A stretch of DNA of 63,129 bases, counting the filler. It is 5 parts of 5 records of this genome, joined end to end, with 100 filler letters (N's around TTAATTAATTAA, not from the genome) between each part and the next. Parts side by side here need not be neighbours in the genome. Positions count along the whole stretch, not along the records: positions 27,444 to 40,583 come from SRR31156797_1713; 4 more parts are not named here. One strand, written 5' to 3'. A program made the translations under genes and the position numbers. The notes beneath the pieces are model-generated. The model was not told the origin of the DNA and did no database searches. It saw nothing but the letters and a program-made list of their open reading frames with translations. Positions within the stretch are counted from its first letter, which is position 1, and every line of letters starts with the position of its first letter. Of this stretch, positions 9,193 through 55,508 are shown piece after piece.

Positions 9193-9636
9193 ATGCAAAA
9201 ATTGACAAAAACAGATGATCCTTTTCTGTGGGGCTTAAAAAAAATAATTCATTATTGTCTCAAAGCGCTTAGCCTGCTCATGGTCATCGTTATTATTTTT
9301 GGAGTACTCGACGTTGGCTGGACACTCTACAAACGAATTATAGCTCCACCAAGTTTTGTTTTGACAATTGGTGATATCTTAGCAACGTTTGGTGCGTTTA
9401 TGGTGGTTCTTATAGCCATTGAAATCTTTCAAAATATTATCATGTACCTGAGAGATAATGTAATCCATGTCAAGATTGTCTTATCAACAGCGCTAATGGC
9501 CATAGCCAGGAAAGTTATTATTCTCGATTATGATGAATTAGGACCTCAATACATCTTAGGCACAGGCGTTGTACTGCTTGCAACAGGTATAACATATTAT
9601 TTCGTCCATAAGCTCTCCGATCAAACCCAGGACTAA
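9193..9636 (+). CDS. Phosphate-starvation-inducible PsiE-family membrane protein
   Basis: 4 hydrophobic helices; VLIAIEIFQNI, ALMAIARKVIILD. Confidence 0.85.
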   Translation: MQKLTKTDDPFLWGLKKIIHYCLKALSLLMVIVIIFGVLDVGWTLYKRIIAPPSFVLTIGDILATFGAFMVVLIAIEIFQNIIMYLRDNVIHVKIVLSTALMAIARKVIILDYDELGPQYILGTGVVLLATGITYYFVHKLSDQTQD

Positions 9637-9821
9637 AAGTAGGTTTCACGACATCTCTGGTTTATCACCGCCAGAAGGTGAATATAATGTTTGAAACCAA
9701 TGGTAAACACGCTTCAGAACAGTGTTGAGCAAGAAGCCTTTTCACACAATCGTGAAAAGGCTTTGTTTTATACAGCCCCTCATCTGCAGACGACATGGCA
9801 CTGCAAATCAAAAGACATCTG

Positions 9822-10376
9822 TCAAAGCATTACCTCAGCACTGCAGCCATTAAGAATTTCCTCGACAGGGGCAAGGTCAGCAGCCTGTTGACCACGAAAG
9901 TAATAATAGAGTTGATCACCAGGACCAACAACTACAGCCCCTCCCAACTGCAGAGCATCCCCCTGCTTGGTTCCAGGCCGATAGCCATCTTTTAACGCTT
10001 TCAATCCGCCGACAAGGGCACTGGCTGCAAAAAGGCCTGAAACTTTTCGGGTAAACCCCAAAGCCTTATAACTCTTGAGCGTTGGGTCGGTGAACAGCTT
10101 GCCGCTATACCCTGTTAACTCAGAGAAACCAGGCAAATCAGTGGGTTGACCATTGCCAACAACAACGAGCTCCGCGCTGACGTCGGCAAACTGCTGCTGA
10201 TACCCTGCCAAGTCAGCAACCTGCTGACGGCTGAAGACTCAGCCAAAGTGGCGGACAAAAATCATTGCAGCCCGTTGTTCTCCCCAAAAAGATGCAAGAT
10301 TGTGGTCTTTTCCCTGAGCATCGAAAACGCTTAGGGTACCAAAAATGCTAATATCAACACGTGGTGAGTTTTTCAT
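9822..10376 (-). CDS. Peroxiredoxin-like AhpC/TSA-2 (PRXL2/SelU-like) protein, predicted selenoprotein (Sec46)
   Basis: ATG at 10376 with SD GGAG gives MKNSPRVD...RAAMIFVRHFG-TGA-VFSRQQVADLAG..., in frame with the 9822-10211 ORF; TGA (10241-10239) sits at the catalytic Cys position of the RHxGCxxC motif; downstream family motifs FTDPTLKSYKALG and QGDALQLGGAVVV; 184 aa. Confidence 0.88.
10207..10231 (-). promoter_or_regulatory. Bacterial SECIS-like hairpin
   Basis: Minus strand GCC-GUCAGCA-GGU-UGCUGAC-UU-GGC; 7-bp perfect upper stem; G-led apical loop separated from the UGA by 17 nt. Confidence 0.75.
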
Positions 10377-10503
10377 CGCTCTTTATCTCCAGCTTTATTC
10401 ACATTGTTTGATACGAATAACCAATAAGACTTTTGACGAAAAAATGACCCCAACTAGTGAATCGTTGCAACTCATCATTTGCGATTCTTGCTTGAGACGC
10501 CCC

Positions 10504-11532
10504 TTAATAACTGTGTTCATCCAATTGCACTTTCCCTCTAAAGGTCCAGTAGATCAAAACCGTATATGAAAGTACCAACGGCATCCCTATGGCAACAATT
10601 ACCAATCCAATTTTCTGTGTGAGAGGGCTTGAAGCGCCATTAAAAATAGTGATGCTGTGTGCAGTGTTGTTTACAGCCGGAACCAAGTCGGGAAAAATGG
10701 CTGCGCTAAAAAGAAACACAAGGGCTGCTATTGTACAGCAACTGCTTATAAACGCATAAAAAGGACGTTCTTGCTGTATTGCTCTGGGTATATTTGCGAT
10801 GGCAAGAACATTGAGTAGCGGCACGACCCACAAAACAGGGTAACGGCTAAAATGCTGCAGTGAGGCTGGCACAAAAAAGGTAGACCAGCTAGTTACCAGA
10901 ATGAACAAAATCACATACACATAATATGTTCCTTTCATCCACCCTAAAAGCCTATCCTGAAGGGTTCCCTCAGTTTTCAGGTAAAGATAGATTGCACCAT
11001 GCATGGCTAAAAGAGATACCGTGAAAAAACCGACAGCAAGACTGAAACCTGAGATCATATCCCAAAAAGTACCGAGATAATCTCCCCGTTCCGAAAGCTG
11101 CAGCCCCTGCATAAGTGCACCTATCGCTACACCAAAAAGAAGTGAAGCCAAGGTAGATCCAATAAAAAATAAGATATCCCAAAAGGTCCGCCAAACTGCG
11201 CTCACTCGCTTTGATCGAAACTCCAGCGAAACCGCACGGAAAATAAGCGCAAACAAAAGCAGAACAAAAGGAAGGTAAAAGGCACTGAAGATCGAAGCAT
11301 AGGCATCGGGAAACATCGCAAAAAGAGCGCCGCCAAAGGTGACCAGCCACACTTCGTTACCGTCCCATAACGGGCCGATACTATTCATAACCAACCGTCT
11401 TTCCTTATCTGACCTGGCTACAAACGGATGGAGAATACCAACCCCCAGGTCAAACCCATCGAGAATCGCGTACCCAATAAGCAAGACATTGAGAAGGATA
11501 AACCAAGTAATGGACAAGAATTCAGGATTCAT
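10504..11532 (-). CDS. cydB: Cytochrome bd ubiquinol oxidase subunit II
   Basis: YAILDGFDLGVG, SIGPLWDGNEVWLV, FRAVSLEFR, YWTFRGKV; overlaps the cydA stop. Confidence 0.96.
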   Translation of the reverse strand: MNPEFLSITWFILLNVLLIGYAILDGFDLGVGILHPFVARSDKERRLVMNSIGPLWDGNEVWLVTFGGALFAMFPDAYASIFSAFYLPFVLLLFALIFRAVSLEFRSKRVSAVWRTFWDILFFIGSTLASLLFGVAIGALMQGLQLSERGDYLGTFWDMISGFSLAVGFFTVSLLAMHGAIYLYLKTEGTLQDRLLGWMKGTYYVYVILFILVTSWSTFFVPASLQHFSRYPVLWVVPLLNVLAIANIPRAIQQERPFYAFISSCCTIAALVFLFSAAIFPDLVPAVNNTAHSITIFNGASSPLTQKIGLVIVAIGMPLVLSYTVLIYWTFRGKVQLDEHSY

Positions 11533-19196: not shown

Positions 19197-19296
19197 NNNN
19201 NNNNNNNNNNNNNNNNNNNNNNNNNNNNNNNNNNNNNNNNTTAATTAATTAANNNNNNNNNNNNNNNNNNNNNNNNNNNNNNNNNNNNNNNNNNNN
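19197..19296. other. Artificial contig linker
   Basis: N44-TTAATTAATTAA-N44 (stops in all six frames); composition drops sharply to AT-rich across it. Confidence 0.99.
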
Positions 19297-27343: not shown

Positions 27344-27443
27344 NNNNNNNNNNNNNNNNNNNNNNNNNNNNNNNNNNNNNNNNNNNNTTAATTAATTAAN
27401 NNNNNNNNNNNNNNNNNNNNNNNNNNNNNNNNNNNNNNNNNNN
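27344..27443. other. Artificial contig linker
   Basis: N44-TTAATTAATTAA-N44. Confidence 0.99.
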
Positions 27444-28023
27444 ACTTCCTAGTCCACTTATTAATAGAATGGTTCATATTGTTTTAGAAGCTAAATATGA
27501 TGATTTTAAAGTATGGGCTATTAAAAATGAGATTCATCCTTTTGTAATAGGTTTCTTAGGATTTAGACCAGATTTATTAAGTTCAGAAGTACCAAGTTCA
27601 ACAGAAACAAATCCAGCTTTTTGTACACCAAGAGCTTGGAATATGTTATCAAATATCATCAAAGCAAATGGAGATTTAAGTAGATTACACCCAATTATAT
27701 ATGGAACTGTTGGTTATGCAGCTGGAATTGAGTTTATCTCTTTTGTTAAAGTATATAAAACTCTACCTGATATAGATGCTATTTTAGATGGTAAAAGTGA
27801 AACTATACCTGAAGAGCCAAGTGCATTGTATGCTTTATGTGCTGCGATTATTGAAAAATATAACTCAACAAATCAAGCTGATAATCTGTTTGCATATACA
27901 AAGCTTTTGCCAGTTGAGTTTAATGTGATGCTTATTAAAGACTTGATTATAAAAGATGAAAATATTGCAGAGTTAGAAGCTTTTGACTCATGGATGGAGG
28001 AGTATGGTGAGTACATCATATGA
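27444..28023 (+). CDS. MoxR-like AAA+ ATPase, C-terminal part (5' truncated)
   Basis: Frame is open from the contig edge: LPSPLINRMVH (arginine-finger region) and AFCTPRAW (sensor-2); directly upstream of a DUF2201/vWA gene. Confidence 0.82.
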
Positions 28024-29233
28024 TGAAGTTTTTCAGAAAATAAGAATAAATTTTCTGTTTAACCATCCTTTTCTTTCTGTATTAGCACTATCAATTCCTA
28101 CACTTTTTATGGAAAATAAAAATAGTGCTTTTCAAACTAATGGTAGTGAAATCCATATAGACTTGAAAAAACTTGAAAGGTATTCAAGTGATGAGATAAC
28201 TTATCTTTATGCTCATACACTTTTACATATAGTTTTAAAACACCCTTTTAGACAAAAAACAAGAGAACAAAAACTTTGGAATCAAGCTTGTGATTTAGTT
28301 ATAAATCTTATTATGTCAGATTTCTCAAATGTTGGGCAAATGCCAGTTGATGAGATGTTAGATTTAGATTTAAAAGATAAGTGTGTTGAAGAGGTTTATG
28401 AAATTCTTTATAAAGAGAATGAAAAAGAAGAAAGTGAAGATACTAGTGATAGTGAGAAAAAAGAGCAAGAGATAAAAACAACACCAAATGAAAAAGGTGA
28501 TTTAAAAACTCATATTTATGACCCTTCAAAGATGGATTTAGAAGAGGTTAATGATGATAAGACAAACGAAGGTGAGAGAGAAAAACTTGACGGTATAATT
28601 GTCCAAGCTTTATCAATAGCAAAGAAAAACTCAAAAGAGTATATTGGAATGCAAATAGAGATTGATACTTTGATAAAACCTGAAATCTCACTTCAAGATA
28701 CTTTAAAAGAGTATTTAATCTCTTCCTTATTTGAAAAAACATCTACTTATGAAAGACCAAATAAAAGATTTGTTCATACAGGATTATATCTTCCAGGAAG
28801 TAAAAAAAGTGATGAACTTATAGAGGTTTATATAGCTTTAGATAGCAGTTCTAGTGTTACTCTTGATGAGTATAAAAAGTTTTTGGGTGTAGTAAAAGAT
28901 GTTTGTGATGGTTTTTATGAATATAAAGTTACTGTTTTACCTTTTGATTTAAAAGTAAAAGAGGAGCATATTATAAACTTTGATTCTTTTAATCCTTTAA
29001 GTGAAGATGAACTTTTTATACCTAAAAGTGATGGTGGAACAGATTTTGATGAGGTATTAAGATATCTAAAAAAATCAAGTGATATTAAAAATGACAATCT
29101 TCTTATGGTATTAACTGATGGGGAGTTTGAGTTAACTGAAGCTTTAGTTTGTACAACATTGTTTGTGATTAGTGAAAAGAAAAATATTACGAGGTTTGAA
29201 AGATTTGGAAGAGTTATTCAATTTGACCTATAA
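28004..29233 (+). CDS. DUF2201-type protein: metallopeptidase-like N-domain + vWA domain
   Basis: HPFLSVL, FQTNG, YAHTLLHIVLKH, WNQACDLVIN, acidic linker, RPNKRF..LYLPG, MIDAS ALDSSSS, GGTDF, VLTDG; SD GGAGG. Confidence 0.88.
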   Translation: MVSTSYDEVFQKIRINFLFNHPFLSVLALSIPTLFMENKNSAFQTNGSEIHIDLKKLERYSSDEITYLYAHTLLHIVLKHPFRQKTREQKLWNQACDLVINLIMSDFSNVGQMPVDEMLDLDLKDKCVEEVYEILYKENEKEESEDTSDSEKKEQEIKTTPNEKGDLKTHIYDPSKMDLEEVNDDKTNEGEREKLDGIIVQALSIAKKNSKEYIGMQIEIDTLIKPEISLQDTLKEYLISSLFEKTSTYERPNKRFVHTGLYLPGSKKSDELIEVYIALDSSSSVTLDEYKKFLGVVKDVCDGFYEYKVTVLPFDLKVKEEHIINFDSFNPLSEDELFIPKSDGGTDFDEVLRYLKKSSDIKNDNLLMVLTDGEFELTEALVCTTLFVISEKKNITRFERFGRVIQFDL

Positions 29234-29909
29234 AGATGAGGTTGAACTACTAAAAGATGAAGAGGATTTTGAAAGCTTAGGTGATGAGAAGTATTTAGAA
29301 CATCACGATATGGAAGCAAGACTTTATTGGGCTTTTTGTAGACCAAATGGCTCAAGGGAAGAACAAATAGCCGATAGTGAACCTCTTGTTTCAATAATGG
29401 CTTTTAATCACTCAAAACTACCTGCACTAAAAAGATTTCAACTACTTCATAAAGATGTTATAAAAAAAGATGATTTAAGAGTAAAAATAAGAAACAGAAC
29501 AAGAATGCTTTTTAGAAGTTTAGTTGATGATGACTTCACTGAACTAAATAAAGTATTAGATTTAGTTCCAGTTTTTTTACCTGTTGCAATAGACCAGTTA
29601 AAAACAGGAAGGAAATGGAACGATATAGTTGCAATAGAAACAGAAGCTACAAAGTTTTTACAAAAAGCAAAAGAGTATATAGATAAGAGTCTTTTAGAAG
29701 CTTTATACTTTAAACTTCAAAGTTTTGAAGAGTTTGACCAAAGTGAGTTAAAAGAGTATTTAGAAGAGCTAAGAAATAAAAAAAATGATATAGATAAAAT
29801 AATCTTAGATTACTATTTTGAAAAAGCTTTTGAGTGGATAGAAGATAGTGATTTGCATCTTCTTCAAAAAAAGGGTTTAGAAAAAGTAGCTAAGTTTTTG
29901 TTAGACTAA
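29205..29909 (+). CDS. Hypothetical alpha-helical protein, paralogue A
   Basis: Overlaps the vWA gene end; likely TTG start at 29205 (MEELFNLTY); C-terminal 139 aa align without gaps to the 31188-31751 protein. Confidence 0.8.
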   Translation: MEELFNLTYKDEVELLKDEEDFESLGDEKYLEHHDMEARLYWAFCRPNGSREEQIADSEPLVSIMAFNHSKLPALKRFQLLHKDVIKKDDLRVKIRNRTRMLFRSLVDDDFTELNKVLDLVPVFLPVAIDQLKTGRKWNDIVAIETEATKFLQKAKEYIDKSLLEALYFKLQSFEEFDQSELKEYLEELRNKKNDIDKIILDYYFEKAFEWIEDSDLHLLQKKGLEKVAKFLLD

Positions 29910-29926
29910 AAGCTACTTTCTTTTAT

Positions 29927-31099
29927 TTATTTATTGTAACTTAGGATTTTTTCCACATATCTTTTTGTTCTCATTCCAACTAAAATTCTAGTAACAAACT
30001 CTTGCTCTTCTAAATATTTTAGTGCATATAAATCAATTGGTTCTTTTATCTCTAACTCTTCACTAACTTTTTTAGAGATTTTATTTTTTACATTGTTTTT
30101 GTAGCCATCTAAAAAGTTATCTACAAGTTGGAAATATATGGGGTCAAGTTCAATTGTATTTACAATATAAGGAATAACTTGGTATTCAATAATATCATCA
30201 ACATCTCCAGCCCATCTGTATTCACTCTCAATACTAAGTAGTTGGTTCAAAGCTTCTTGAAAATCATCATTTGGTATCTCTTTCACTTGACTCAATAGAT
30301 TATCATAGTTTATACATTCACTATAACTTGCAAGTCTTAGCATACTATCTTTGTACATTGCATTTAAAGGTCTATTTACATGAACTTCAAGACCATTTTC
30401 ATGTGCCCATTTTGCAGCATTTATACCTTCATGTTCAAACATATTCATTGGTAGTTGTATAACTTTGAAGTGGTGGTTTTCTCCAGCAATTTCTTTTGCG
30501 TAAGCAAGTAGATGTTTATATTCTAAAAAGTGAATATCACTTCTTTTTTTTGAAAAAGAGTTAGAGCTTATACCGTAGGCTTTTATTTTTCCATCTTTGA
30601 CTCTTTCTTCAAGAAGAGCAAAGGCTTTTTTTATTCTTAATTGCATAGTTTTATGGTGCTCTAATATTTGTTCTTGAGACATTCCTGTTTTTACCTCTTT
30701 TAGTAAATAGTATTCAGGATTATGAAGTAAGTAAACATCAATATAATCTGTATTTAGTCTTTCTAAACTATTATGTATTTGTTGGTCAATAAATGATTGA
30801 GAGATAGAGTGAAAGCAATCACTATCATATCTAACTAAATCATCAACTTCATAAGAGCCTCCTTGAACTTTTTTTAACAATTCCCCTTGTATGTAACCAC
30901 CTTTTGTAACTATAGTAAAGTCTTCTCTTTTTCTATTTTCTAAAGCTCTTCCTATTAGAATCTCTGCATCTCCATGCATATAGTTTGCTGATGTATCTAT
31001 ATGAGTTATTCCATTGTCCAAAGCATATCTTAGAGCTTCTGTATGGATTGGGTTTTGATAAGTTGTTCTGTAAGTTCCAAATGAATATTTTGATAGCAT
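29927..31099 (-). CDS. Aldo/keto reductase
   Basis: SFGTYR, HIDTSANYMHGDAE, VTKGGY, SLERLNTDYIDVYLLHNPE, KIKAYGISSN, ILVGMR. Confidence 0.9.
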   Translation of the reverse strand: MLSKYSFGTYRTTYQNPIHTEALRYALDNGITHIDTSANYMHGDAEILIGRALENRKREDFTIVTKGGYIQGELLKKVQGGSYEVDDLVRYDSDCFHSISQSFIDQQIHNSLERLNTDYIDVYLLHNPEYYLLKEVKTGMSQEQILEHHKTMQLRIKKAFALLEERVKDGKIKAYGISSNSFSKKRSDIHFLEYKHLLAYAKEIAGENHHFKVIQLPMNMFEHEGINAAKWAHENGLEVHVNRPLNAMYKDSMLRLASYSECINYDNLLSQVKEIPNDDFQEALNQLLSIESEYRWAGDVDDIIEYQVIPYIVNTIELDPIYFQLVDNFLDGYKNNVKNKISKKVSEELEIKEPIDLYALKYLEEQEFVTRILVGMRTKRYVEKILSYNK

Positions 31100-31127
31100 T
31101 AATTAACCTTTTTGATTTTAAGGGAAT

Positions 31128-31156
31128 ATTATATACAAAAACTATACCTTTGACAA
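31128..31156 (-). promoter_or_regulatory. Sigma70-type promoter for the AKR gene
   Basis: Minus strand TTGTCA-N17-TATAAT about 30 nt upstream of the AKR start. Confidence 0.55.
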
Positions 31157-31160
31157 TATG

Positions 31161-31176
31161 GGGTATGAATATTGCA
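31161..31176 (+). promoter_or_regulatory. Putative sigma54 -24/-12 promoter
   Basis: gGG-TATGAATATT-GCa (GG-N10-GC with TTGCA); predicted +1 falls at about 31187, next to the ATG at 31188. Confidence 0.45.
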
Positions 31177-31187
31177 TATACAAAAAC

Positions 31188-31751
31188 ATGGAAAGAACTT
31201 ATGATTTAGAAACATACGATAGATTTTTAGGTGAGTTTAAAGAGCATGGAAATCACTGGGATAAAATAGAAAAAAGAACAGCAACACTTTTTCAAGTTTT
31301 AATTGATGGAGATTTAAAAGAACTTGTTTTTGTTTTAGAACATTATCCTAAATATATTAGGATTGTATGTGACCACTTTAGGTATCTTTATAACTATTCA
31401 GAACAAGAGGGTGATATATATGCAGCTTCAAGACTTTTGACGATGAGTGAAGGTTACCATCAAAAACAGTTTGTTAGAAACTTAGTTAGAAAGTTAAAAA
31501 AAATAGAAGAGTATGATATCTCATCTTTAAAAACTTTTTTGGATGAACTAATATCAAACCAAGAAAAAATCCATCCAATAATAATAAACTACTACAAAGT
31601 TGAAGTGGAAAAAAATATTAAAAACAACAACTATCATAAACTACAAATAAAAGTTATTGAAAAAAATTTAAATAAACTAGAAGCTGATGATAGCTTTGAT
31701 TTTACTGCAAGTGATAGGGATGCAAATCTTGATATACCATATATGGAATAA
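31188..31751 (+). CDS. Hypothetical alpha-helical protein, paralogue B
   Basis: ORF track start 31158, likely start MERTYD at 31188; 44/139 identities with paralogue A; acidic C-terminal tail. Confidence 0.8.
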   Translation: MERTYDLETYDRFLGEFKEHGNHWDKIEKRTATLFQVLIDGDLKELVFVLEHYPKYIRIVCDHFRYLYNYSEQEGDIYAASRLLTMSEGYHQKQFVRNLVRKLKKIEEYDISSLKTFLDELISNQEKIHPIIINYYKVEVEKNIKNNNYHKLQIKVIEKNLNKLEADDSFDFTASDRDANLDIPYME

Positions 31752-31760
31752 GGAGAAAAA

Positions 31761-32183
31761 ATGTTTTATAAAAAAAAGAGTATAACTTTTTATGAAAAAT
31801 CAGGGTGTTTAGGAAATAAAAAACAAAAAGAACTTTTAAAAGCAAATGGCATTGAGTTTGAAGTAAAATCGATGCTTGATACAAAATGGGATTTTTATAC
31901 TTTAAATAGTTTCTTTAAAGATTTAGACAAGAAAGATATTATAAATGAATTTGCACCTAAAATAAAAAGTGGCGAGATTAATATAGGCAAATATTCAAAA
32001 GATGAATTAGTATCTTTAATGCTCGAAGAGCCTATTTTGATAAAAAGACCACTTATAGTAATCGATGATATAAAAATTTGTGGTTTTGATGTATCAAAAT
32101 TAAACAAAGTACTGAATCTTAATCTTGATTCAAAAAAGAAGATTGGAACTTGCCAAAGTGGTGATTCTTGTAAAAATGTTTAA
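31761..32183 (+). CDS. ArsC/Spx-family protein, nitrogenase-associated (NifO-like) subtype
   Basis: ITFYEKSGCLGNKKQKELL, W..TL..FF, APKIKSGEI, PILIKRPL, CGFD match the FYEKPGCxxNxxQK subtype; SD AGGAG. Confidence 0.8.
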   Translation: MFYKKKSITFYEKSGCLGNKKQKELLKANGIEFEVKSMLDTKWDFYTLNSFFKDLDKKDIINEFAPKIKSGEINIGKYSKDELVSLMLEEPILIKRPLIVIDDIKICGFDVSKLNKVLNLNLDSKKKIGTCQSGDSCKNV

Positions 32184-32232
32184 CTTCTAAAAAAGGTATA
32201 AATAATATAATAAATCAAAAAGTGAGTTATTT

Positions 32233-33792
32233 ATGCCAAAACTATTTAAAGACTTCATATTTTTTGGAGCATTAATTGTAATACTTTTATCTATTTATCA
32301 TCCAATTTTTTTATGGACAATTCCATTTTATCTATTCTTTTTGTTACTTGGACTTTATGATATTAAACAAACTAAGCATTCATTATGGAGAAATTTCCCT
32401 ATTCTTGGTCATATGAGATGGATTTTAGAAGAATTAAGACCACCTTTTAGACAATACTTTATTGAATCAGATATCGATGGAGTTCCTATAAACAGACAAC
32501 AAAGAAGTGTTGTTTATAGACGCTCAAAAAAATTACCAAGCACTGTTCCCTTTGGTACAGAACTTGATGTTTATAAACCAGGTTACGAATGGATTGGTCA
32601 CTCTTTAAATGCAAAAAAAGCAAAAGATTTAGATACAAACCCAAAAGTGTTAATTGGTGGAAAAGATTGTAAAAAATCTTATAAAGCATCAATACTAAAT
32701 ATCTCTGCAATGAGTTTTGGAGCATTAAGTTCAAATGCAGTGTTAGCTTTAGGACAAGGTGCAAAAATAGGTGGCTTTGCACTAAATACAGGTGAGGGTG
32801 GATTAAGTAGGTATCATCTTGCTACAAATGCTGATTTAATCTGGCAAGTTGGAACTGGATATTTTGGATGCAGAGATCAAAATGGAAACTTTGATTCTGA
32901 AAAATTTAAAGAAAAAGCTCACCATGAAAATGTAAAAATGATTGAAATAAAACTTTCTCAAGGTGCCAAACCAGGTCATGGTGGGATTTTACCTGCAAAT
33001 AAAAATACAAAAGAGATAGCTGAGGATAGAGGAGTTACTGTTAATACTAGAGTTGATTCTCCTCCAACTCATAGTACCTTTAATACTCCAGAGGGTTTAC
33101 TTAGTTTTGTCGATAAATTAAGAGATTTAAGTGGAGGAAAACCTGTAGGTTTTAAACTTTGTGTTGGAAGAAAAGAGGAGTTTATAAATATCTGTAAAGC
33201 AATAGTTGATACTGGAATAAAACCAGATTTTATAACTGTTGATGGAGGAGAAGGTGGAACTGGTGCTGCACCTTTGGAATACACAAATTCAGTTGGTATG
33301 CCACTAAGAGAAGCTTTGGTTTTTGTTATAGATTGTTTGATTGGATTTGGTTTAAAAACTGATATCAAAGTTATTGCTTCTGGAAAAATACTAAATGGGA
33401 TGGATATAGTAAGAGCCTTAGCAATAGGTGCTGATTTATGTGCAAGTGCAAGAGGAATGATGTTATCTTTAGGTTGTATTCAAGCTTTACAATGTCATAA
33501 AAATACATGTCCAACTGGTGTTGCTACACAAGATAAAAGATTAGCAAAAGGTTTAGTAGTTGAGGACAAAAAACAAAGAGTTGCAAACTTCCATGAGGTT
33601 ACAGTTGAAAGTTTTGTTGAGATTTTAGCTTCAGCAGGTTTAGAAAAGCCTAGTCAGTTAAATAGAACTCATATATTTAGAAGACTTGATGAGGTTAATT
33701 ATAAAAGATATGATGAGATTTTTACTCCAATGAAAAATGGAGATTTATTATCTGAACCTTATCCTAAAGATTACAAAAGGTTTGTATCTTAA
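32233..33792 (+). CDS. FMN-binding glutamate synthase-family protein (YerD-like)
   Basis: N-terminal TM; NISAMSFGALS, NTGEGG, EIKLSQGAKPGHGG, DGGEGGTGAAP, GCIQALQCHKNTCPTGVATQD. Confidence 0.93.
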   Translation: MPKLFKDFIFFGALIVILLSIYHPIFLWTIPFYLFFLLLGLYDIKQTKHSLWRNFPILGHMRWILEELRPPFRQYFIESDIDGVPINRQQRSVVYRRSKKLPSTVPFGTELDVYKPGYEWIGHSLNAKKAKDLDTNPKVLIGGKDCKKSYKASILNISAMSFGALSSNAVLALGQGAKIGGFALNTGEGGLSRYHLATNADLIWQVGTGYFGCRDQNGNFDSEKFKEKAHHENVKMIEIKLSQGAKPGHGGILPANKNTKEIAEDRGVTVNTRVDSPPTHSTFNTPEGLLSFVDKLRDLSGGKPVGFKLCVGRKEEFINICKAIVDTGIKPDFITVDGGEGGTGAAPLEYTNSVGMPLREALVFVIDCLIGFGLKTDIKVIASGKILNGMDIVRALAIGADLCASARGMMLSLGCIQALQCHKNTCPTGVATQDKRLAKGLVVEDKKQRVANFHEVTVESFVEILASAGLEKPSQLNRTHIFRRLDEVNYKRYDEIFTPMKNGDLLSEPYPKDYKRFVS

Positions 33793-33795
33793 AAA

Positions 33796-33811
33796 GGGAA
33801 TACTATTTGCA
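33796..33811 (+). promoter_or_regulatory. Putative sigma54 -24/-12 promoter
   Basis: gGG-AATACTATTT-GCa (GG-N10-GC) about 35 nt upstream of ATG 33845. Confidence 0.5.
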
Positions 33812-33844
33812 TACTTAATTGGAATTATATTATAAGGAAAAAAA

Positions 33845-34408
33845 ATGGCAACTCCAATTGAGTTTATCAAAGAAAATGAATTAGCATGGCAACCATCTTT
33901 TAGTGGGGAATTAAGTGACGGTACTTATGGATATAGAGGAGCACTTATTATTGAAGCTGGGAAACAAATTTCACCAGATAGAAAACTTCCTCCAAAAATT
34001 CAAGCGAAACAAGTAATTATGATCTCTGAGGCTGAAGAGATTAAATTTTTCGCTTGTGAATTAGATAGTTTTCATGACTTAGCACCAATGGTTGCTAAAT
34101 ATAAAGGTTTCTTTACTAATGGTTTATACTTATTATATGTTACAGATTTAGAAAAAGCTGGTACATTTGAGTATGAAGGAGTTAAATTTACTGCATTACC
34201 ATTAGATGAGAGTTCAGTTTGGAATGAACTTTTAGAGTTAGCTGAATTAGAAAAAAGTGATATGAAAGCACTTAAAAAACAAGAAGAAAAAATCGAAACT
34301 CTTTTTGATGAATTAACTTCTGTAGATGTAGAAGAAGAATCAAAATCATATGAAGAGATGTTAACTTTTGTAGGAGAAAGTTCTAAACAACTTATGGGAG
34401 CAGTTTAA
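33845..34408 (+). CDS. Hypothetical acidic protein (187 aa)
   Basis: Clean ORF, SD AAGGA, short hairpin (GAGCAGTT-TAAT-AACTGCTT) at the stop; no family recognised. Confidence 0.8.
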   Translation: MATPIEFIKENELAWQPSFSGELSDGTYGYRGALIIEAGKQISPDRKLPPKIQAKQVIMISEAEEIKFFACELDSFHDLAPMVAKYKGFFTNGLYLLYVTDLEKAGTFEYEGVKFTALPLDESSVWNELLELAELEKSDMKALKKQEEKIETLFDELTSVDVEEESKSYEEMLTFVGESSKQLMGAV

Positions 34409-40583: not shown

Positions 40584-40683
40584 NNNNNNNNNNNNNNNNN
40601 NNNNNNNNNNNNNNNNNNNNNNNNNNNTTAATTAATTAANNNNNNNNNNNNNNNNNNNNNNNNNNNNNNNNNNNNNNNNNNNN
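40584..40683. other. Artificial contig linker
   Basis: N44-TTAATTAATTAA-N44. Confidence 0.99.
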
Positions 40684-55408: not shown

Positions 55409-55508
55409 NNNNNNNNNNNNNNNNNNNNNNNNNNNNNNNNNNNNNNNNNNNNTTAATTAATTAANNNNNNNNNNNNNNNNNNNNNNNNNNNNNNNNNNNN
55501 NNNNNNNN
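55409..55508. other. Artificial contig linker
   Basis: N44-TTAATTAATTAA-N44. Confidence 0.99.

Follow-up and report, generated by a model that had tools for sequence, protein, structure and literature searches.

Several AAA+ ATPases of the MoxR class work together with a partner that carries a von Willebrand factor A (vWA) domain. NorQ/NorD, CbbQ/CbbO and CoxD/CoxE(/CoxF) are pairs of this kind that mature or reactivate a metalloenzyme or Rubisco, and in E. coli the MoxR-family ATPase RavA and the vWA protein ViaA act on respiratory and iron-sulfur enzymes. Nitrogenase assembly is a closely studied metalloenzyme pathway and a target for transfer into crops. Judged by titles and abstract openings, the literature we searched holds no paper tying a MoxR-class AAA+/vWA pair to the nitrogen fixation (nif) genes. 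Here we analysed a locus within a stretch of 63,129 bases of DNA, referred to as the window, that encodes an AAA_5-type ATPase, a vWA protein with a metal ion-dependent adhesion site (MIDAS) and an apparently dead zincin-like N-terminal domain, and two further proteins, A and B. In the genomes of relatives this module is restricted to carriers of nif genes, and we hold with moderate confidence that it is probably a chaperone or maturation module of the nif regulon. Its variable associates are a NifO-like ArsC protein and further small proteins restricted to nif-bearing genomes.

The link to nitrogenase rests primarily on the distribution of A. All genome-wide statements refer to the genomes of relatives (G numbers; individual loci have L numbers) and not to the genome of the window. 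We used an order sample of 151 Campylobacterales genomes and a family sample of 121 genomes from the family of G001. A was scored as present upon a match at E ≤ 0.001 with all rows kept, including two that are weak or fragmentary (a contig-edge piece in G005 and pieces with stop codons in G113), and nifD upon a TIGR01282 match at E ≤ 1e-30. In the order sample nifD was found in 36 of the 151 genomes, 29 of them over the curated cut-off, and A in 13, all of which belong to the 36 nifD-positive genomes and 12 of which belong to the 29. The thirteenth A-bearing genome, G113, has a nifD that is itself split, with broken pieces of the ATPase, vWA and A genes at a distance of 16 kb from it, a case of parallel decay. 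The family sample gave the same picture, with A in 19 and nifD in 39 of the 121 genomes and all 19 A-bearing genomes being nifD-positive, as are the further A-bearing genomes G003 and G004. No intact module was detected in the nifD-negative genomes, 115 in the order and 82 in the family sample. A orthologues in nifD-positive genomes have diverged down to 35% identity, and this divergence, together with the lack of A from all 82 nifD-negative genomes of the family, limits an explanation by lifestyle or ancestry. Where module and nifD share a contig they are 212 kb (G110), 188 kb (G149) or, in the other cases, 39 kb to about 2.1 Mb apart. As the module usually lies far from nifD, the association does not reflect mere co-transfer on one island.

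Phylogenetic profiling had been suggested in a sequence-only reading of this DNA that preceded our analysis, with both nif and rpoN as markers. The profile of A against nif survived this test, with 13/13 and 19/19 A-bearing genomes being nifD-positive, whereas rpoN proved too widespread (118 of the 151 order-sample genomes) to be a discriminating marker at the order level. The decayed locus of G113 (L031, G113:C1:1419000-1438999) is a 20-kb stretch made up almost wholly of short broken open reading frames (ORFs), which looks like regional or genome-wide gene decay.

Using A as anchor we identified four related loci, and genome searches then added further ones. The full unit in relatives has the order (bacteriohemerythrin)-AAA_5 ATPase-DUF2201_N/vWA-A-B, and the ATPase, vWA and A genes form an uninterrupted trio at 16 of 17 intact places, these being the window, L001-L004, L013-L022, L032 and L033, with the decayed L031 excluded. 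In the window the trio lies on the plus strand and consists of the 3' part of the ATPase gene (27445-28023), the vWA gene (27983-29233), which overlaps both of its neighbours, and gene A (29172-29909). A bacteriohemerythrin gene (TIGR02481, 63 bits versus a cut-off of 52) precedes the ATPase gene in six Arcobacteraceae loci, and in the window this gene was probably cut off by the contig edge. B, at 31158-31751 on the plus strand of the window, directly follows A in six loci (L013, L014, L015, L019, L020 and L021). Elsewhere the two are separated by an aldo-keto reductase (AKR) gene (window), by an Mla transporter cluster (L002), by more than 9 kb (L032 and L033), by 20 kb (G003) or by 28 kb (G001). 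In L016 an AAA_15/AAA_21 ATPase gene and a DUF3226/Toprim gene occupy the gap (9269-11021), a pair that looks like inserted defence-type genes. The NifO-like ArsC gene is found 3' of B in the window, L015, L029, L032 and L033. In L018, A is followed by a small helix-turn-helix (HTH) gene and then by the ArsC gene, and in L017 the ArsC gene also comes after this small HTH gene, with an opposite-strand methyl-accepting chemotaxis protein gene between that pair and A. G001 and G263 have the order B-ArsC-(99 aa)-acidic-GreA in common, which contains two additional small proteins, one of 99 amino acids (aa) and one of acidic nature, that are treated below. Thus, the linkage across genomes that the earlier reading had named as a check is maintained, the trio being kept in all places but one and B, ArsC and the acidic gene recurring beside it.

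Two loci connect the module with nif genes directly. In L017 and L018 the ATPase gene is immediately preceded by a gene for a NifQ-domain protein of 109-112 aa, which matches the C-terminal part of the Pfam model only (positions 55-158 of 159). Genes for a flavodiiron protein, a SagB-like nitroreductase and a peroxiredoxin are located farther upstream in both loci. In L017 a NifA-like gene (TIGR01817, 519 bits versus a cut-off of 529) is found as well. It is located about 3.5 kb upstream from the start of the ATPase gene and is oriented divergently to the peroxiredoxin gene at the head of the gene string. NifQ and NifO are tied to molybdenum handling for nitrogenase in Azotobacter. The NifQ-like and NifO-like neighbours point to the handling of molybdenum or of the iron-molybdenum cofactor (FeMo-cofactor), and those encoding hemerythrin, a flavodiiron protein and a peroxiredoxin to protection from oxygen or to repair. 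The restriction to nifD-positive genomes, the gene linkage, the NifQ and NifA neighbours and the conserved motifs presented below support the role as a nif accessory that had been proposed from the sequence.

The ATPase gene of the window encodes the C-terminal 192 aa, i.e. the lid/helical region. The N spacer in front of the contig ends at 27443, and the 5' part of the gene with Walker A and B was lost at the contig edge at 27444. The AAA+ gene described earlier is hence present and overlaps the vWA gene as claimed, but the window holds just its 3' fragment. A Pfam scan of the 192-aa fragment gave no match. The fragment is, however, 82-83% identical to residues ~144-335 of 335-aa proteins in L001 and L002, which in full length match AAA_5, AAA and AAA_3, with AAA_5 at 32-35 bits versus a cut-off of 22, and in most loci the ATPase has a size of 334-337 aa. 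The Walker A and B motifs expected of an AAA_5/MoxR-kind ATPase are found in the orthologues (GSPGIGKS and ILFLDE in L001), the truncation of the window copy having removed that part. Among the sequences in the PDB the AAA domains of midasin are the best match (2e-11), and MoxR-like 2r44 matches at 2.5e-4.

The vWA protein combines a DUF2201_N domain and a DUF2201 vWA domain (Pfam, 1.2e-23 and 3.5e-8). An alignment of 11 orthologues revealed that H78, H82 and H87 are invariant, and so are the MIDAS residues D287, S289, S291, T353 and D379 (11/11). The residue following H78 is T, I, V or S in all 11 sequences, resulting in the motif H-(T/I/V/S)-x-x-H, which misses the catalytic Glu of HExxH. 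Due to this replacement the vWA protein is not a peptidase, although the conserved histidines suggest that its zincin-like domain may still bind metal. The paralogous DUF2201 clade likewise has no catalytic Glu (H or I in the paralogues seen). A sequence search of the PDB with the vWA protein returned no relevant match, and a prediction of the vWA-A complex scored 0.00, which is no verdict as the run ignored alignments and the fold of A itself was uncertain in it. vWA orthologues of more than 38% identity are confined to A-bearing genomes. A second pair of AAA (42% identical) and DUF2201 (about 23-25% identical) genes, unaccompanied by A or B, is widespread, nifD-negative genomes included; members of this clade are found at L028 3412-5528, L030 3319-5513 and L003 135-1091, and in G114 and G100 the second pair sits between the nifD and nifE-like matches. 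Databases list the proteins of the module as 'DUF2201 family putative metallopeptidase', 'vWA domain-containing protein' and 'hypothetical protein'. Judged again by titles and abstract openings, the literature on DUF2201 includes none on its function, and our search for COG3864 found no paper.

A probably starts at TTG 29205, resulting in a protein of 234 aa whose N-terminus, MEELFNLTYK, is that of its relatives, and the probable start of B is ATG 31185. That B is a paralogue of A, as recognised in the sequence-only reading, is confirmed by BLASTP (32% identity across 134 aa, E = 1e-17). B corresponds to the C-terminal two thirds of A, and the N-terminal ~100 residues of A are conserved and have no counterpart in B. 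The C-terminal tail of B is conserved and acidic (D-x-D-A-x-L-D/N-I-P-Y); one may speculate that it is a candidate ligand of the MIDAS or of the pore. A has 402 homologues at E ≤ 0.001. The 120 matches listed are 65-98% identical, and the named homologues among them come from Campylobacterota only, Arnit_0270 of Arcobacter nitrofigilis DSM 7299 being one. A profile built from A and B found 56 representative proteins among 1.84 billion. Neither A nor B gave a Pfam or NCBIfam match, and a search of the ESM Atlas with A gave no usable match. The AlphaFold model of A (predicted local distance difference test score (pLDDT) of 91.2) is all-alpha with 16 helices, and Foldseek returned nothing for it at E ≤ 0.001. 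The best VIA match had a Z of 7.6 across 58 residues of a helical hairpin bundle, which is under the chance level for helical proteins, and a MIF4G- or TOG-like repeat fold reached a Z of ~7 at a root mean square deviation of 5-7 Å; both candidates were rejected and no fold was assigned.

Two -24/-12 motifs are present on the plus strand of the window, one before B (31162-31177, GGTATGAATATTGCAT, GGTAT-N5-TTGCAT) and one before the acidic gene (33797-33812, GGAATACTATTTGCAT, GGAAT-N5-TTGCAT), the latter being followed by a leader of about 30 nucleotides (nt) with AAGGA. Since their number alone is not significant, the weight of these motifs comes from their conservation in relatives. GG(T/C)A(T/C)-N5-TTGCATAT stands before B in five genomes (window, L002, L006, L013 and L014), and CTTGGAAT-N5-TTGCATAT is located upstream of the hemerythrin gene in L001, L002, L013 and L014. 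The ATPase gene is preceded by TGGCAT-N5-TTGCAT in L015 and by TGGCTC-N5-TTGCAT in L016, and ArsC in L015 again by TGGCAT-N5-TTGCAT. Upstream of the acidic gene, the window and G110 have GGAA(T/C)-N5-TTGCA, and G001 has GG-N8-TTGCAT before this gene (L006 753-768), the motif lying 35-55 nt upstream in G001 and G110. The nifH genes of these lineages have comparable motifs, namely TGTGGAAC-N5-(A/G)TGCAAT (L023 and L025) and GGAAC-N5-ATGCA (L026). The two GG-N10-GC motifs that the sequence-only reading had taken for sigma54-type promoters are, thus, present, conserved and similar to those of nifH, even if their count alone is not significant.

Variants of the motif were observed as well. The nifH gene of G114 has AGAAT-N5-ATGCAT, and this variant recurs before the peroxiredoxin and flavodiiron genes of G114 and G100 and before the ATPase gene of L004. 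In three lineages the -24 element is AGAA(C/T) instead of GGAA(C/T), nifH included (L017 16233-16400, L018 13496-13700 and 17484-17600, L004 7750-7961, L027 9900-9950). Several nifD-positive genomes contain two rpoN genes, one copy being located ~20-50 kb from nifD in at least G114, G131 and G118. A second sigma54 with an altered -24 preference is a possibility.

The start codon of B follows the C of the -12 element after 12-13 nt, and the same motif occurs at the same distance in L002, L006, L013 and L014. Hemerythrin genes of Arcobacteraceae share this feature with B, both starting 12-13 nt past the -12 GC with no Shine-Dalgarno sequence before the start codon in four to five genomes each (window 31162-31187; L001 7218-7246; L002 7222-7250 and 14217-14245; equivalents in L013 and L014). 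Owing to this short spacing and the lack of a Shine-Dalgarno sequence, the sigma54-driven transcripts predicted for B and hemerythrin would be leaderless. When the whole of G110 was searched with GGAAY-N5-WTGCA, 57 matches were obtained versus 2 for the reversed control, with 12 of the 57 located in the 48-kb nif region. A cluster of matches at 146-159 kb of G110 was rejected as a group of promoters because all four lie inside ORFs, so that a match to the pattern is not sufficient to call a promoter. A single Sigma54_activat (PF00158) protein is encoded in each of G001, G002, G110 and G149, and in G001, G110 and G149 its gene lies within about 12-16 kb of nifD with rpoN nearby. The G110 activator matches NifA best at 517 bits (cut-off 529), the next family reaching 384. 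As only one activator is encoded, any functional sigma54 promoter in these four genomes should depend on it, which is the strongest argument on the regulatory side. Taking motifs and activator genes together, we infer that the module may be under sigma54/NifA control.

The NifO-like ArsC-family gene (31761-32183, plus strand, PF03960) starts 10 nt after B. Its product has TIGR01616, 'nitrogenase-associated protein', as best NCBIfam match, with 108.2 bits versus a cut-off of 109 and 47 bits for the runner-up family. TIGR01616 is present in 14 of the 151 genomes, 13 of these 14 having a nifD match, and exceeds the curated cut-off in 8/151. This distribution agrees with the nif-type ArsC named in the earlier reading, the protein being 0.8 bits short of the family's cut-off. 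In G110, G149 and G136 the gene sits in the main nif region and not beside B. The acidic protein (33845-34408, plus strand; 187 aa, calculated pI 4.46) belongs to a family of 243 proteins at E ≤ 0.001. It is present in 14 of the 151 genomes, each with a nifD match (14/14), and its gene lies within the nif regions of G051, G136, G114 and G100. As it co-occurs with A in only 6 genomes, it is a separate nif-restricted gene rather than an obligate subunit. Its structural model has a pLDDT of 88.6. The best Foldseek match, McrBC chain 6hz4_N, had an E of 0.014 (none ≤ 0.001), and the best Z in a VIA search was 3.7 among 48,161 chains, so that neither search led to an assigned fold.

Seven loci from six genomes encode, after ArsC or B, a conserved protein of 98-102 aa without family match, which we call the 99-aa protein (L029 3769-4065, L032 1877-2176, L033 1654-1953, L015 10999-11298, L016 8393-8701 and L003 3655-3957 among them). 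Its gene is missing from the window, where a glutamate-synthase-like gene (32233-33792, Glu_synthase 1.5e-85) occupies the place after ArsC. This gene was seen beside module genes in the window and its closest relative, G226, only, and it occurs in 2 of the 151 order-sample genomes, both without a nifD match, with 42-43% identity. The AKR gene (29927-31099, PF00248) lies on the minus strand and is convergent. The gene set delimited in the sequence-only reading is therefore confirmed in its core, since the AAA, vWA and A genes stay together and the B, ArsC and acidic genes recur beside them, and has to be narrowed by two genes, AKR and the glutamate-synthase-like one, which we treat as lineage-specific insertions rather than members.

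The window consists of five contigs joined by four N44-TTAATTAATTAA-N44 spacers (19197-19296, 27344-27443, 40584-40683 and 55409-55508). The module locus is located on the third contig (27444-40583) and starts at the first base of that contig, and every feature listed earlier was found where it had been placed. Contigs from an independent DNA run span 27444-29510 and 29481-34408, demonstrating that the gene order is real and no assembly artefact. At base 33791, in the stop codon of the glutamate-synthase-like gene, all four other runs compared have one base fewer, and the C-terminus of this protein in the window may be affected by an indel or an assembly error. None of the runs recorded as RNA contains this DNA. 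In two runs that we guessed to be RNA, the contigs over 32217-34408 are deeper than the rest; their type is uncertain, however, and genes cannot be ranked by the depth of contigs. An Rfam scan of the window gave zero matches. The first contig (1-19196) differs in composition, with a GC content of 41-49% across its first 18 kb as compared to 23-31% in the other contigs, and encodes a cytochrome bd oxidase, an aldehyde dehydrogenase, an ABC1 kinase and Usp genes. This contig could be an island of foreign origin or could have been binned wrongly.

The way in which NorQD, CbbQO, CoxDEF, RavA-ViaA and midasin work suggests a possible mechanism for the module. The ATPase ring would supply the force, the vWA protein would grip an acidic residue of its partner via the MIDAS site, and A and B would serve as client-specific adaptors. 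In this way the module might remodel NifDK, NifEN or NifQ, which are metalloproteins of the nitrogenase pathway, with delivery of cofactor or molybdenum, or repair after oxygen damage, as the outcome. That the module acts as a chaperone, and on which client, we infer from these analogies and the gene neighbours. A more specific version, which we put forward tentatively, is that the module would be the first dedicated AAA+ activase or maturase of nitrogenase, its MIDAS adaptor and A/B docking onto NifDK, NifEN or NifQ. Such an enzyme might open its clients for insertion of FeMo-cofactor or molybdenum, or might rescue oxygen-damaged enzyme in microaerobic diazotrophs.

Several observations weigh against a role in the nif regulon. 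The window itself contains no nif genes, and the Fisher tests (p = 1.2e-9 for the order and 1e-11 for the family sample) are uncorrected for shared ancestry. Only 13 of 36 and 19 of 39 nifD-positive genomes carry the module, which consequently is optional and dispensable for nitrogen fixation as such. The trio is interrupted in L003, where A is preceded by a DUF2201 gene of the other clade that is 66% identical to the unlinked L028 paralogue; this arrangement fits an 'engine plus specific adaptor'. With regard to the promoters, GG-N8-TTGCAT was observed 5 times in the window versus 1.96 expected, a number reached by 4 of 100 shuffles. The motifs of B and hemerythrin lie too close to the start codons to allow a leader, an uncommon arrangement in sigma54 promoters, and 45 of the 57 pattern matches in G110 lie outside the nif region, the four examined being inside genes. 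No NifA site of the form TGT-N10-ACA was found within 300-345 nt ahead of the hemerythrin, B or acidic gene, nor upstream of nifH; the only near-match, with N9, lies upstream of nifH in G110, and the NifA site used in Campylobacterota may differ from TGT-N10-ACA. Finally, the hemerythrin, flavodiiron and peroxiredoxin neighbours indicate oxygen stress as much as cofactor assembly.

These neighbours suggest another explanation, according to which the module repairs oxygen or oxidative damage by remodelling or re-metallating iron proteins in general and is merely co-regulated with nif. The bacteriohemerythrin gene heading the operon in the six Arcobacteraceae loci and the flavodiiron, SagB-like nitroreductase and peroxiredoxin genes ahead of the ATPase gene in L017 and L018 fit this idea, as do the three invariant His residues of the zincin-like domain, which could bind metal. 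However, nifD-negative genomes also face oxygen, and none of the 115 + 82 studied has an intact module; moreover, the closest recurrent neighbours are the NifQ-domain and NifO-like genes. A stress-repair function uncoupled from nitrogenase is hence rather unlikely. The same phyletic data argue against an ordinary housekeeping pair of AAA+ and DUF2201 proteins that would be linked to nif only through shared ancestry or through the lifestyle of large-genome, free-living lineages. Such a pair is known, as the second DUF2201/AAA pair (about 25%/42% identical) is widespread also in nifD-negative genomes, and the module is mostly distant from the nif cluster, with statistics that are phylogeny-uncorrected. 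Yet the association holds within a single family (0/82) and across A orthologues at 35% identity, and the adjacency to NifQ, NifA and NifO genes as well as the nifH-like motifs are independent of the phyletic count, so that we regard a housekeeping role as improbable.

Two further explanations concern the proteins themselves. The database name 'predicted metal-dependent peptidase' and the invariant HxxxH with a third His would agree with the DUF2201_N protein being a metallopeptidase with activity on A, B or a different substrate unfolded by the ATPase, but in place of the Glu of HExxH the orthologues have T, I, V or S (11/11) and the paralogues seen have H or I, making this very improbable. 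The sequence-only reading had offered a MoxR-vWA ternary conflict system, i.e. an anti-phage or programmed-death system with A or B as the third, sensing component, as its alternative. In the available part of the description of these systems, the third component is VMAP, iSTAND, FtsH or a beta-propeller, and variable effectors are attached to the C-terminus of the vWA protein (Kaur, Burroughs, Iyer and Aravind 2020, PMC7159879). The module resembles them in having three or more components around a MoxR-like/vWA pair and an inactive peptidase-like domain on the vWA protein, as in the peptidases found in effector position there (PMC7159879). A is, however, all-alpha in its model, whereas VMAP-C is described as alpha/beta in that source, and the vWA protein ends at the vWA domain without a C-terminal effector. 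A is 64-88% identical in 18 of 19 family matches (the exception being a contig-edge fragment with 49%) and is thus conserved rather than diversifying. PADLOC matches were marginal only, with E ≥ 5.6e-4 across P-loop stretches, and the presence of the module tracks nif and not mobile elements. The conflict system consequently fails in the defining features tested, i.e. third component, effectors and diversification, and we consider it extremely improbable.

If the nif-regulon chaperone or maturation module is what this locus encodes, it would represent a new class of nitrogenase accessory factor containing two proteins of unrecognised fold. It might also have to do with how microaerobic Campylobacterota from sediment, root and vent habitats fix nitrogen. 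The link to nif gives a first functional context to part of the DUF2201 family, which is large and unstudied. Two further nif-restricted unknowns flagged by the analysis are the acidic protein and the 99-aa protein.

Among described systems, the MoxR-vWA conflict systems share with the module a MoxR-like/vWA core plus further conserved components, but the module has no VMAP, iSTAND, FtsH, beta-propeller, effectors or diversification as set out in the part of the source available to us, and is found in Campylobacterota, where it tracks nif (PMC7159879). Midasin/Rea1 likewise combines an AAA_5 motor with a MIDAS domain, and its AAA domains are the best match among solved structures (2e-11); midasin is, however, a giant single eukaryotic polypeptide in ribosome biogenesis, whereas the two functions of the module are on separate small proteins. 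RavA-ViaA probably differs from the module in ATPase subfamily and vWA architecture. The neighbouring genes have counterparts in known nif factors. The ArsC gene is like NifO/TIGR01616 in its score of 108.2 bits and its restriction to nif (13/14 genomes), and unlike it in being 0.8 bits under the cut-off, and the genes before the module in L017 and L018 encode the C-terminal domain of NifQ, although in proteins of just 109-112 aa. Also close to the module are NorQD, CbbQO and CoxDEF. These differ in that the vWA partner of the module is of the DUF2201 type with a predicted dead zincin-like N-terminal domain, and in the additional helical A and B, for which they have no counterpart. What we propose as new is a nitrogenase client system, in addition to two new subunits, A and B, for chaperones of the MoxR-class/vWA kind; the titles and abstract openings searched describe no AAA+/vWA helper for nitrogenase. 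As in NorQD, CbbQO and CoxDEF, a gene for an AAA_5-type ATPase adjoins a MIDAS-vWA gene and lies among, or co-occurs with, the genes of one enzyme system, and just as CoxDEF goes with the Mo-Cu CO dehydrogenase, the enzyme associated with the module is a molybdenum enzyme, nitrogenase.

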